Source: Clostridiales bacterium (lineage in GTDB: Bacteria > Bacillota > Clostridia > Oscillospirales > CAG-272). Taken from it: a DNA stretch of 63,822 nt. Position 1 is the stretch's first letter, and each line of letters begins with the position of its first letter. The notes under the pieces were generated by a model. It had not been told where the DNA came from. It was given only the letters and a program-made list of their open reading frames with translations, and did not search any database. This document shows positions 2,375 through 5,547 of this stretch, one piece after another. The translations under genes were made by a program, and so were the position numbers. The stretch covers positions 1 to 63,822 of the forward strand of contig JAAYLD010000066.1 in assembly GCA_012522015.1 (NCBI GenBank), read 5' to 3'.

Positions 2375-2698
2375 TTGATAATACTCCTTTTATAATTGTG
2401 TAAAATAAAGGATATGACGTTTTTACGTTTATTTCAATATGGTCATAAAGAAAGGGAAAAGGCATTAAGGCGATTAAGATTTACTGTTTTATTTATGCTG
2501 TCATATCAATACATGCAGCGCCTGCTTACATGTATGTAAGATATTTAGTATGCTTCACTTGATTTTAAGCTTCTTCACTGGTACAATTATTTTTGTTATG
2601 TTAATAAAACTGTACAGCATTCTATATTCGTGGATTTGTTTTTTGTGTTCATCAAAAACCTGGGTCATAAAGACCGCCGCGCAGAGGAGGCAAGGCTT

Positions 2699-4462
2699 AT
2701 GAGGTTTATAGGCAGGGGAGCAGTAGTCGCTGCTGCAACGGTTGCCACCGCAGCGGTAGTATTAATGATAGCTCTAACGGGCTGTTCTTCCGGCAATAAA
2801 GTTGAGCAAAACAACTGGGAGAATTACGATGAACTTATAGATTCCATTATGGTATCCGGTGACGCCGCTGAACGCGAAGCTCTTCTTCATGAGGCTGAAG
2901 ACATGCTCATGGAGACAGGATGTGTTGTTCCGGTGCACACTAAAAACAGTGATTTCACATCTGTACCGGGTCTTACAGGAGTTTACGAATCATGCAGCGG
3001 AGCGAAATATTTTGCAGGCGCATCACTTGGCGACTCCTCAAAAATTTCCGTCGGATTAACAGGGGAGGCAAGAGAAATCGACCCTGCGATGGCATATGAC
3101 CCCATTGAGACGACAGTTGCCGTCAACATATCAGCCGGACTTTTTAAGTTTGGAGCCGACGGGCTGCCGACCCCTGATCTTGCTGCCGGTTATGTGGTGT
3201 CGGAGGATGGGCTGAGTTACACCTTCACGCTGCGCGAGGGGCTTTTGTGGTCGAATGGCACCGTAATTGATGCCGAAGATGTTAAATATTCGTGGGAGCG
3301 GGCAGCACAAGAATCAACTGGCTGTAAATATGCTTATCTTTTTGATGTAATTGCACGTGATGACAACGGCAAGATGATGATTACATCAACAGACTCAAGC
3401 TTACGCACGTTTATCGTGCAGCTAAAGCGTCCGTGCCCATATTTTATTGATTTATGCGCCACCCCAGCGTTTGCTCTTGTAAATGAATACTGCGTCAAAA
3501 GAGCGAAGGGTTATTCAGATATTTACGGAAACGTGCTTGATGCGGGCGCGTGGACGAGAGATGCAGACCCTGTCGTTTCAGGGCCGTATAAGTTTTCGTC
3601 TTGGACTTCGGGCAACTCAATTACGCTTGTAAAAAACGAAAAATACTACGATGCCGAAAATGTCCGAATTAGCGAAATAAAGATTTATTTCGGAAACAGG
3701 GAAGAAAATACAGCCGCTTTTGCGGCAGGGGGGCTTTCGCTTGTTGATTTTGTACCGACATTTGATGAAGAAACACAAAGCAGCAGCGGGCACCCTCAGA
3801 TGACAGTTAATGATGGCAAGATTCTTTCATCACATTATCTGTGCTTTAATTTTCACAGCAAAATATTTAGAGGAATGACAGCTGCTCAGGCTGCAAATCT
3901 GCGCCGCGCGCTTTCGCTTCTTATTGACCGCAATCAAGTTATAGAAACGGTTGGAGAAGGTGCTGTTGCATCGACGTCTATCATACCTAAGGATACGCCG
4001 GATGGCGTTGGTGGATTGTATGGTGTAAGCGATGCTCTTTATGCATATGCTGATGAGAAAGCGCCCGGATACTTTTCTAATAACACAGAAGAAAATTTAG
4101 CCGAGGCGAGGCGCATTCTTGCAGAAATTGGACTTGACGCTGATGGCGACGGAATTATAGATAACGCACGCCGCTTTGATATCAAATACCTAACGCTAAA
4201 CACTCCAAGCGAGATAAAATTGGCACAATGCGTTCAGCAAAATCTTGCAAAGGTCGGAATTATAGTAAAGCTTCGTGCTGTGAGGGAAGAAGGTTACCTT
4301 TACGAGCGGATGATATACAGCTATGATATTGTCGCGACGGAGTTTACGGCTGCCTATCCGTCAGCTACCAGCTTTCTTGAGCTTTGGTACACTGGCGGTG
4401 CACATAACTGGGCGCAGCTTGGTGCTGAAGCCGTAAAGGAAGAGAATAAAAACGCATATTAA
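2699..4462 (+). CDS. Family 5 ABC solute-binding lipoprotein (OppA-like), apparently circularly permuted
   Basis: RBS GAGGAGG 8 nt before ATG 2699, lipobox ALTGC, and SBP_bac_5 motifs (EIDPA, YTFTLREGLLWSNG, SGPYKF, LRRALSLLIDR). Confidence 0.9.
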   Translation: MRFIGRGAVVAAATVATAAVVLMIALTGCSSGNKVEQNNWENYDELIDSIMVSGDAAEREALLHEAEDMLMETGCVVPVHTKNSDFTSVPGLTGVYESCSGAKYFAGASLGDSSKISVGLTGEAREIDPAMAYDPIETTVAVNISAGLFKFGADGLPTPDLAAGYVVSEDGLSYTFTLREGLLWSNGTVIDAEDVKYSWERAAQESTGCKYAYLFDVIARDDNGKMMITSTDSSLRTFIVQLKRPCPYFIDLCATPAFALVNEYCVKRAKGYSDIYGNVLDAGAWTRDADPVVSGPYKFSSWTSGNSITLVKNEKYYDAENVRISEIKIYFGNREENTAAFAAGGLSLVDFVPTFDEETQSSSGHPQMTVNDGKILSSHYLCFNFHSKIFRGMTAAQAANLRRALSLLIDRNQVIETVGEGAVASTSIIPKDTPDGVGGLYGVSDALYAYADEKAPGYFSNNTEENLAEARRILAEIGLDADGDGIIDNARRFDIKYLTLNTPSEIKLAQCVQQNLAKVGIIVKLRAVREEGYLYERMIYSYDIVATEFTAAYPSATSFLELWYTGGAHNWAQLGAEAVKEENKNAY

Positions 4463-4626
4463 AAGAGTGAATACTGTTGTCAGCGGGGTAGTTTACTATA
4501 CAATTCATAATATGAAAGTAAAACGCCGCGCGTTAAAAGTATATATCGGCACTGGCAAAACACAACCTGCCGCTGACATTTTCACCGTTTTGTAAGTCAT
4601 AAGTCCCGCGTTTTAACTATATAAAT

Positions 4627-4668
4627 AAAAAAGAGACAAGTCTAAATTTTTACGACTTGTCTTTTTTT
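4627..4668 (+). terminator. Intrinsic terminator downstream of the oppA-like gene
   Basis: AAAAAAGAGACAAGTC...GACTTGTCTTTTTTT hairpin with T tract. Confidence 0.75.
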
Positions 4669-4765
4669 ATATAAGCAATGTAATGAAGATGTAATTTCAA
4701 AATTGGGTAATTGATACTACAAGAGGAAAACAAAATAGTTCTGTTGCCTGTTTTCTAAGACTTTA

Positions 4766-5247
4766 CTATGTATTATTCTTATCACTTTTTGTAGGTATCG
4801 TGAATTCGGCTACAAGTTTAAATGATTTATGCTTATCAACTGAAAATTCTTTCACAATTAGATAGGTTCCTTTTTTAAGATTGCCGCATAACCACTCCAA
4901 ATTAATTTCAAGTGTGTATTCTGATTCTTTAGGTACTATGGTTTCTATACAAACCGTGACAACATTCCTAAATATAGCGCTTGGTTTATATATAACTCGA
5001 TATCATTGTCCTAAGATTTTCTTTTCAAGAATATAGTCTTCACCAAATGTTAGTTCTTTGTCGGTATCATTTTTTATAATCAAAGTAATTCCTGTTTTAG
5101 ATATTCTATTTTCATCTACTGTTATTGTTACGCCATCGTAGTTTTCTTCCGTAAATTCGCTTTTCAATAAAATATTCAATCCAATAAGGATTGCAACACA
5201 AATAATTATCATAATTCCAAATATGATATATAAAGCTGTTTTTTCAT
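4766..5247 (-). pseudogene. Membrane-anchored bacterial Ig-like domain protein, disrupted
   Basis: RBS AAGGAG and ATG at 5247. One A is missing in the A-run after the start. In-frame TGA at 5003-5005 where Trp fits (GQ*Y), and the frame continues as WLCGNLKKGTYLIVKEF to TAG at 4766. Confidence 0.7.
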
Positions 5248-5547
5248 AGTTTTCTCCTTATTGTTTTACTGCGTTGTATTTTACCAATGTGTGATGACGC
5301 CATACTAACTGCTACCACTATATACTTCTTTCGTTACATTTTACATGTATAAGTTTAAAAGCTCTATAATCGGTTAACTTTTTCATAGATTTTATCATCA
5401 AGCCTGATAAACAACAGATGGTTTGGATTATTCTCAACGGGGCTTTGTTTTCTTCAATAGAAAAGACGAGACTTTCTTTATTTATGCACGTAATTTCAAT
5501 ATGTATTTCATATACATATATATGAATTCAACAGTTGGGGGGCGCAT

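Follow-up and report, generated by a model that had tools for sequence, protein, structure and literature searches.

Does nature build the OppA-type substrate-binding fold from chains with a rotated order of segments, and if so, how often has such an order arisen? The question is raised by a gene at 2699-4462 on the forward strand of the window, by which we mean the entire 63,822-nucleotide stretch of contig JAAYLD010000066.1 (GenBank assembly GCA_012522015.1, from a Clostridiales bacterium) that was analysed here. The gene codes for a 587-residue lipoprotein (hereafter the query) of solute-binding family 5, or cluster C, with the OppA/DppE fold. Cluster C proteins are the receptors of ATP-binding cassette (ABC) importers for peptides, nickel, opines and oligosaccharides and are widely used as biosensor scaffolds; the solved structures and the classification papers that we searched all assume a single chain topology. 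A sequence-only reading of the window had proposed that the query is a natural circular permutation, and swapped-order homology, collinearity after rotation, a confident predicted fold, conservation, and independent DNA and RNA assemblies uphold that proposal. We put at close to nine in ten the probability that the gene codes for a circularly permuted, membrane-tethered cluster C/family 5 substrate-binding lipoprotein that likely acts as an ordinary receptor for an Opp-type permease.

The open reading frame (ORF) list gives one long frame here, 2630-4462, with its likely start at the ATG at 2699. The encoded elements follow each other as a signal peptide with lipobox, a 10-residue tether, the canonical C-terminal block (residues 40-108), a 6-residue joint, the core (115-575) and a 12-residue tail. 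The Pfam model SBP_bac_5 (PF00496) recognizes residues 157-568 with 230.4 bits against a gathering cut-off of 32.4, which places the protein in family 5. As canonical cluster C references we took Bacillus subtilis OppA (BsOppA; 8ARE) and DppE (8AY0), Listeria monocytogenes OppA (5KZT), Salmonella typhimurium OppA (StOppA; 1B05/1OLA) and Escherichia coli MppA (3O9P). A phmmer search of all PDB chains matched canonical proteins as two pieces in swapped order: query residues 118-570 with DppE 26-444 and 31-84 with DppE 439-494; 115-564 with BsOppA 21-441 and 37-108 with BsOppA 449-522; and 106-574 with StOppA 5-441. Thus, block 40-108 precedes the N-terminal strand at residue 115, in place of the usual family 5 order in which it comes last. 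We then rotated the query in silico (109-575 followed by 31-108) and recovered a single uninterrupted alignment of rotated residues 8-544 with BsOppA 22-521 of 525. The rotated sequence likewise aligned in one stretch with DppE 29-494 and StOppA 21-484, with better E-values, and covered the NCBIfam OppA model from 47 to 510 of 543. Two segments swapped relative to the references and full-length collinearity once rotated are the marks of a circular permutant and, judged by homology, the query is a family 5 member with a rotated order.

The identity of the displaced block was probed by searching with it alone, which recovered the extreme C-terminus of 44 canonical relatives with E-values of 1e-11 to 1e-17, in agreement with its earlier identification as the normal C-terminal end of family 5 proteins. 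It is very improbable that the query simply gained an unrelated helical N-terminal extension and lost its true C-terminal block. On its own the block does give only a weak match to distant PDB proteins (independent E-value of 0.05 to DppE), but in close canonical relatives it recovers the C-terminal block at 1e-13 to 1e-17, and its DNA shares 83% identity with the 3' end of an orthologue of canonical order. Rotation, moreover, yields a collinear alignment, and a fold without the block would miss the second hinge strand.

A structural model was obtained with AlphaFold2 from a 36-sequence alignment of permuted homologues. It has a mean predicted local distance difference test score (pLDDT) of 85.7 and a predicted template-modelling (TM) score of 0.83, with pLDDT values of 87-95 across the block; the poorly defined parts are limited to the signal peptide (a helix at residues 10-26 with low pLDDT), the tether and the last 8 residues. 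Foldseek searches of the PDB with the model returned only family 5 binding proteins among the top 50 matches (E-values of 1e-26 to 1e-19), led by OppA, DppE and MppA at 1e-26 with target-normalised TM-scores of 0.64-0.69. Foldseek is a sequential aligner and aligned the core only; TM-scores in this range would be compatible with such an aligner missing about 75 of 510 residues and with differences in lobe opening. The model and its matches point to the three-domain, two-lobed OppA-like fold. In this fold, PF00496 membership and end-to-end collinearity upon rotation, the query resembles the canonical cluster C proteins, and with the Gram-positive ones it further shares the lipoprotein tether; relatives of the query are encoded in oppBCDF operons.

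In cluster C proteins lobe 1 is formed by the N-terminal part together with the last ~40 residues, lobe 2 by the middle of the chain, and the hinge by two crossing segments (PMC10924461). The point at which the chain has been opened can be read from close relatives of both kinds. The canonical ones begin with lipobox-linker-VLNINLASEPDYLDPAL... and end with ...LEIFTSDSGNNDMQLGK-G.SAAAPEW..YD.LI...MKYFMYATKS followed by the stop, whereas the permuted ones read lipobox-linker-GSSAPEW..YD.LI...MKYFMHATK-EGS-KTLSINLASEPD...SGNNDMQLGK-stop, or in brief lipobox-linker-GSSAPEW...KYFMHATKEGSKTLSINL...QLGK-stop, with a clean boundary. The cut therefore falls in the lobe-2 surface loop after QLGK (canonical ...SGNN..QLGK, StOppA ~441-445). 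This loop is variable, carrying an insertion of ~25 residues in one canonical clade, and lies ~35 residues ahead of the second hinge crossing. Because the cut is in a variable surface loop of lobe 2, both hinge crossings stay covalently intact, and hence a changed hinge geometry, which the sequence-only reading had entertained, is not supported for the block-first cut.

Unlike in the canonical proteins, both the start and the end of the query's chain lie at a single loop ~75 residues ahead of the canonical C-terminus; 6 residues join the old termini, and the tether leaves lobe 2. We infer that the permutation leaves the fold, the cleft and both hinge crossings as they are, and that it changes the connectivity and the exit point of the tether, which would be on lobe 2 instead of lobe 1. 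The chain would begin in lobe 2 at the loop after ...SGNN..QLGK, run through the last two lobe-2 helices, cross the hinge into the final lobe-1 strands and pass through the 6-residue joint into the usual first strand; it would then complete lobe 1, pass over the hinge a second time and end in lobe 2 where it started.

The individual elements can be delimited as follows, all on the forward strand. The lipoprotein signal peptide (residues 1-29, 2699-2785) ends in ...MIALTGC with the lipobox L-T-G-C, Cys29 being the lipidated residue; the lipobox cysteine recurs at this position across the permuted homologues, and some clades have an apparently plain signal peptide. The tether SSGNKVEQNN (residues 30-39, 2786-2815) leads from the lipid anchor to the first helix, is the counterpart of the loop after QLGK in canonical relatives, and measures only 10-12 residues in the query's clade; pLDDT is below 50 at residues 22-36. 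The displaced block, W40-ENYDELIDSIMVSGDAAEREALLHEAEDMLMETGCVVPV...KYFAGA108 (WENYDELIDS...KYFAGA, the canonical C-terminal element), occupies 2816-3022. It had been placed directly behind the lipobox at 2813-3022, and while the block stood, this start proved one codon early, position 2813 opening the codon for Asn39. The block takes in two helices of lobe 2 (modelled at 41-52 and 56-73), the second crossing of the hinge and the final strands of lobe 1, and is invariant across permuted homologues at W40, Y43, L46, D55, H64, A66, E67, L70, M71, P78 and G94. The new joint between the old C-terminus and the old N-terminus, SLGDSS (residues 109-114, 3023-3040), has an equal length in all permuted homologues.

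The usual N-terminal strand, KISVGLTGEAREIDPA, begins at 3041, right after SLGDSS and matching the earlier estimate of about 3040. It opens the core (residues 115-575, 3041-4423), which extends to ...LELWYTGGAHNWAQLG and is supported by the Pfam match, the PDB alignments and Foldseek. G575 ends at 4423, and only 12 residues follow ...FLELWYTGGAHNWAQLG, so that the protein does end just after the motif that normally precedes the displaced block. These 12 residues form the tail AEAVKEENKNAY (residues 576-587, with the stop codon 4424-4462; pLDDT 38), whose motif [AS]x[AVIL]V(K)[ED][ED][ND]xNAY-COOH is kept only in the clade of the query's nearest homologues, P0001-P0012 (homologues are cited by such numbers); the other permuted clades end directly after QLG[KR], without a tail. 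We considered the tail (..VKEENKNAY) as a duplication relic of the block start (..VEQNNWENY) and dropped the idea, as 3 identities in 9 positions are not significant.

Across 9 metagenome studies of biogas or anaerobic digesters, 20 public runs contain the exact 2-kb stretch, and over 2400-4800 contigs from four different studies show 0 differences and no joint. All 19 genomes of the genus have a permuted homologue covering the query from residue ~11-20 to 587. Metatranscriptome contigs on the gene come from four runs of four studies: one (2694-3060) spans the signal, block, joint and core, another (2947-3163) runs from the block into the core, and a third (4051-4656) crosses the stop into a terminator hairpin. 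Searches for a second or degenerate copy of the block 3' of the stop, by tblastn and three-frame reading here and at the loci L007 and L008, found none, the only match being the shared ...MQLGK end. The sequence-only reading had itself named a C-terminal block encoded downstream after an assembly break as the finding that would overturn it; there is no such block and, as noted, the four studies' contigs agree without a difference. There is thus next to no chance that the permutation is an artefact of assembly, chimerism or gene calling, for although the window is a metagenome-assembled contig, the identical sequence was assembled independently in those 20 runs, RNA contigs cross both new junctions, the same order recurs in hundreds of homologues besides the whole genus, and the block is absent downstream. 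A single low-depth metatranscriptome contig (X25) has an extra A after 3039, near its end; it is most likely an assembly error, because no DNA contig shows it.

To our query's topology we found no counterpart among solved structures: the PDB was searched with three permuted orders (the block-first one and those with cuts at ~284 and ~350 described below), and none of its structures shares any of them. Full-text literature searches gave no report of a permuted family 5/cluster C protein and found only Treponema pallidum Tp0684 (TpMglB-2), a circularly permuted glucose-binding lipoprotein of 'Type Ic / Cluster Bc' (PMC4990184). The authors who proposed 'Cluster Bc' noted a link with tethering, its members being mostly tethered lipoproteins of spirochaetes and Gram-positive gut bacteria (PMC4990184). 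Like the query, Tp0684 is an ABC-type binding protein whose chain is naturally permuted, and it keeps its fold and function. Unlike the query it is a sugar-binding cluster B protein that arose by an unrelated event and with a single topology, whereas cluster C shows several cuts and repeated origins. All Pfam, PDB and fold matches of the query are to family 5/cluster C and none point to cluster B or MglB; Cluster Bc is therefore an analogous phenomenon only. A further comparison is offered by a paralogue in the query's own genome (C81:23233-25239), the sole other family 5 protein encoded there, which is likewise a lipoprotein and not beside a permease, but which has the canonical order with its ...YNNIIEQAF...AEELLMEDMPIIPI... 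block at the C-terminus.

How widespread is the rotated order? A word-based search gave 120 homologues, 75 of them block-first, 44 canonical and 1 different. Pooling these with the best 150 matches of a profile search of 1.84 billion cluster representatives resulted in 270 sequences, which include 133 block-first and 99 canonical proteins as well as complete lipoproteins of other orders. Upon rotation to a common order, the permuted P0069 is 85% identical to the canonical P0106 and 34% identical to the query. P0090, which belongs with P0069 among the permuted proteins, is encoded at the end of an oppB-oppC-oppD-oppF-oppA operon. The canonical P0102 occupies this final position in an operon whose layout and gene sizes are the same, and the short contig that carries P0106 shows only parts of oppD and oppF before it. 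At the DNA level the permuted and canonical loci share three segments that are 82-83% identical but rearranged, namely oppF with the signal and linker, the block (83%) and the core. The segment boundaries in this recent pair are exactly complementary: a new stop codon immediately follows K, and three codons (EGS) form the joint, so that the canonical end ...KYFMYTTKS-stop and start ...NILNINL correspond to STK-EGS-NTLNINL in the permuted gene. On these alignments the P0069-group case is a recent rearrangement in place. The permuted group is nested among canonical sequences, and gene conversion between paralogues was considered too; the even 82-83% identity of the three segments and the unchanged operon position favour the rearrangement in place.

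The order has also changed elsewhere in the family. On a maximum-likelihood tree built from 79 rotated sequences the order must have changed at least 4 times, with 3 of the changes forced by well-supported branches, and an approximately unbiased test rejects a single permuted clade (log-likelihood difference ΔlnL of 139, p=0.0002). A FastTree phylogeny of 207 rotated sequences needs 25 order changes; 13 of these set block-first against the other orders, with at least 9 forced by supported branches. For several block-first proteins the closest sequence is clearly a canonical one: P0197 is 63% identical to its nearest canonical sequence as against 44% to its nearest block-first one, with 57% and 40% respectively for P0190. 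As far as these trees tell, gain or loss of the block-first cut has occurred several times within the family, and they fit repeated gains and gains with reversions alike.

At least three further cuts were found among the pooled homologues. Complete lipoproteins with the order C3'-C4-B-C1-C2-C3'' (P0117, P0182, P0198, P0219, P0221, P0245 and P0253) are cut at StOppA ~281-284, between ..GTYYLxFN and ..VRxAlsLaiDR; as this falls at the first hinge crossing, such an order would leave one covalent link only between the lobes. The gene for P0117 (L018:382-2133) is complete and is flanked by an oppF-like gene and spoVAC. The order C4-B-C1-C2-C3, cut at StOppA ~350, occurs with its own lipoprotein signal in P0177, P0200, P0203, P0243 and P0261, and the order C2-C3-C4-B-C1, cut at StOppA ~125, in P0209 and P0256, again with their own signal, and in P0214, whose N-terminus is truncated. 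The rotated P0177 is 67% identical to the canonical P0120 and 60% to P0117 of the cut-284 type.

The permutations probably originated either by duplication or fusion with subsequent trimming or by relocation of the 3' block: an in-frame tandem duplication or fusion could have been trimmed, or the 3' block could have been moved directly. Proteins with two modules in tandem, some permuted and others canonical, do occur in the pooled set, and from fusions of this kind a rotation can be trimmed; they fit the textbook route of duplication, fusion and trimming, and a 3' block relocated directly would fit the exactly complementary segment ends of the recent pair as well. The duplication and loss envisaged by the sequence-only reading thus stays plausible, with natural double modules in its favour; the intermediate it had suggested looking for, a single module with the block at both ends, was found in none of the 270 homologues. 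Among the tandem proteins, P0122 (1398 residues) has two permuted modules, P0160, P0227 and P0254 each have two canonical ones, and P0129 and P0176 (2.7-2.8 thousand residues) have two or more family 5 modules in tandem.

Taken together, we lean towards viewing the Bacillota OppA-type proteins as a natural hot-spot of recurrent circular permutation, with the block-first cut (~StOppA 445) repeatedly gained or lost and with at least 3 other cuts. If this holds, the repeated fixation implies a selectable benefit, which may lie in the exit point of the tether or of a fused domain (Ser/Thr kinase, SLH, Ig-like) or in the dynamics of opening and closing. The main interest of the system lies mostly in these recurrent origins and in the very close permuted and canonical pairs. 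A large natural family of rotated proteins shows where the fold tolerates new termini, pairs at 82-85% identity differ only by rotation, and the same operon with either a canonical or a permuted receptor is a natural test of how tether position and connectivity affect docking and dynamics. The repeated origins also recommend the family for work on how circular permutations come about. The Pfam model covers only the middle of the protein, and hence the rearrangement is invisible to routine annotation.

With respect to function, the query is most likely an ordinary Venus-flytrap receptor that would hand its ligand to the Opp-type ABC permease of its genome. Several observations weigh against this view or parts of it. 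The named NCBIfam equivalog models score far under their thresholds, the OppA equivalog NF011684 giving 96.9 bits against a cut-off of 947 and Opp5A_nikA 105 against 600. The presumed placement of the block in three dimensions draws on the AlphaFold2 confidence and on rotated and canonical relatives being 85% identical. The query's gene stands alone, as an orphan, in an assembly that lacks OppB and OppC, and the contig with the other permease genes, C71, begins inside oppD. Finally, the StOppA motif gW416-C-a-D419-Y aligns with eF549-T-a-A552-Y of the query, so that Asp419 and Trp416 are replaced by Ala552 and Phe549 and binding of peptides is not assured.

In StOppA the conserved Asp419 forms a salt bridge with the alpha-amino group of the ligand, a role in OppA reportedly described by Tame et al. 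in 1994. Because this aspartate is an alanine in the query, its ligand is uncertain, and may be something other than a peptide with a free amino terminus. The Asp/Trp to Ala/Phe difference from StOppA characterizes the query's clade, and the aspartate is also lost in the sister clade P0005-P0012. Other permuted clades keep both the tryptophan and the aspartate, and therefore the loss of Asp is not tied to the permutation; the suggestion that rotation as such could have altered the ligand range is not supported.

The transport apparatus is partly visible: OppD (partial) and OppF are encoded at the very start of C71, OppB and OppC were found neither in the contigs of this genome nor in the assembly of its closest relative, and 17 of the genus's 19 genomes do encode OppC. 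The ABC permeases on C70, C58, C38 and C108 were examined as partners and set aside, not being of the Opp type; the system on C70 looks like a spermidine/putrescine (pot-like) one. In C71:3-1427, the frame has ~250 residues without alignment to OppD ahead of a portion that does align, from OppD residue 129 onwards, which suggests a large insertion in this ATPase.

The main rival to a transport receptor is a sensor: the protein, though genuinely permuted, would act as an orphan sensor, or as a ligand-binding lipoprotein of another kind, that signals to another membrane protein and feeds no ABC permease. We regard this as unlikely, though far from negligible. It gains from the gene being monocistronic and remote from any permease, both here and in relatives, from the loss of the peptide-anchoring aspartate in the query's clade, and from the same permuted module presumably forming the extracellular portion of Ser/Thr kinases and of other non-transporter fusions, through which a sensor role becomes more credible. 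On the other hand, OppD and OppF are encoded in the genome and OppC in nearly all of its genus, and in other clades permuted relatives are the sole binding-protein gene called in or beside oppBCDF-oppA operons. It is also common for a binding-protein gene to stand alone and serve an Opp permease encoded elsewhere. These observations favour the receptor for an Opp-type permease as the more probable role of the query.

The fusions themselves are varied. The block-first module forms the C-terminal part of Hanks-type Ser/Thr kinases in five cluster representatives (P0139, P0140, P0143, P0145 and P0147). It is also C-terminal in P0135, P0126, P0125/P0127, P0134 and P0144, with SLH-domain, DUF6709, apolipoprotein-like coiled coils, LRR_5 and zinc ribbon among the partners, and in P0162 Ig domains follow the permuted module. 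These proteins could represent sensor or cell-wall-anchored uses of the receptor.

As to expression, a promoter-like site, TTGATT-17-TACAAT with TG, lies at 2559-2587 on the forward strand; it is a consensus match only, and the RNA contigs begin at or before 2694. A ribosome-binding site, GAGGAGG, is read from the sequence at 2684-2690 (+), 8 nt 5' of the ATG at 2699. An intrinsic terminator hairpin followed by a T-run is found at 4628-4668 (+; -17.8 kcal/mol, z -6.3), and one RNA contig ends within it at 4656. RNA coverage extends over 2694-4656 with a short break at 3927-4050, and none continues over the spacer to the downstream feoAB; because the coverage stops before this spacer, the gene appears monocistronic.

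In a relative with 86% identity (L013) the gene is at the same place beside feoAB, while in the sister clade it has other neighbours. As the adjacency is conserved only in the 86% relative, a functional link to feoAB was set aside. An AT-rich stretch (4500-5500, 29-32% GC) makes up ~1 kb between the binding-protein gene and feoA, and contains a small ORF with a hydrophobic N-terminus at 5003-5212 on the reverse strand. It looks like an insertion, because the corresponding gap in the 86% relative is only ~380 nt. Upstream of the gene, at 1878-2064, there is a G+C-rich tandem repeat with a period of 21/42 nt and 4-8 copies, which lies inside overlapping ORFs for a low-complexity protein, Gly/Pro-rich on the reverse strand or Thr/Ala/Gly-rich on the forward strand.

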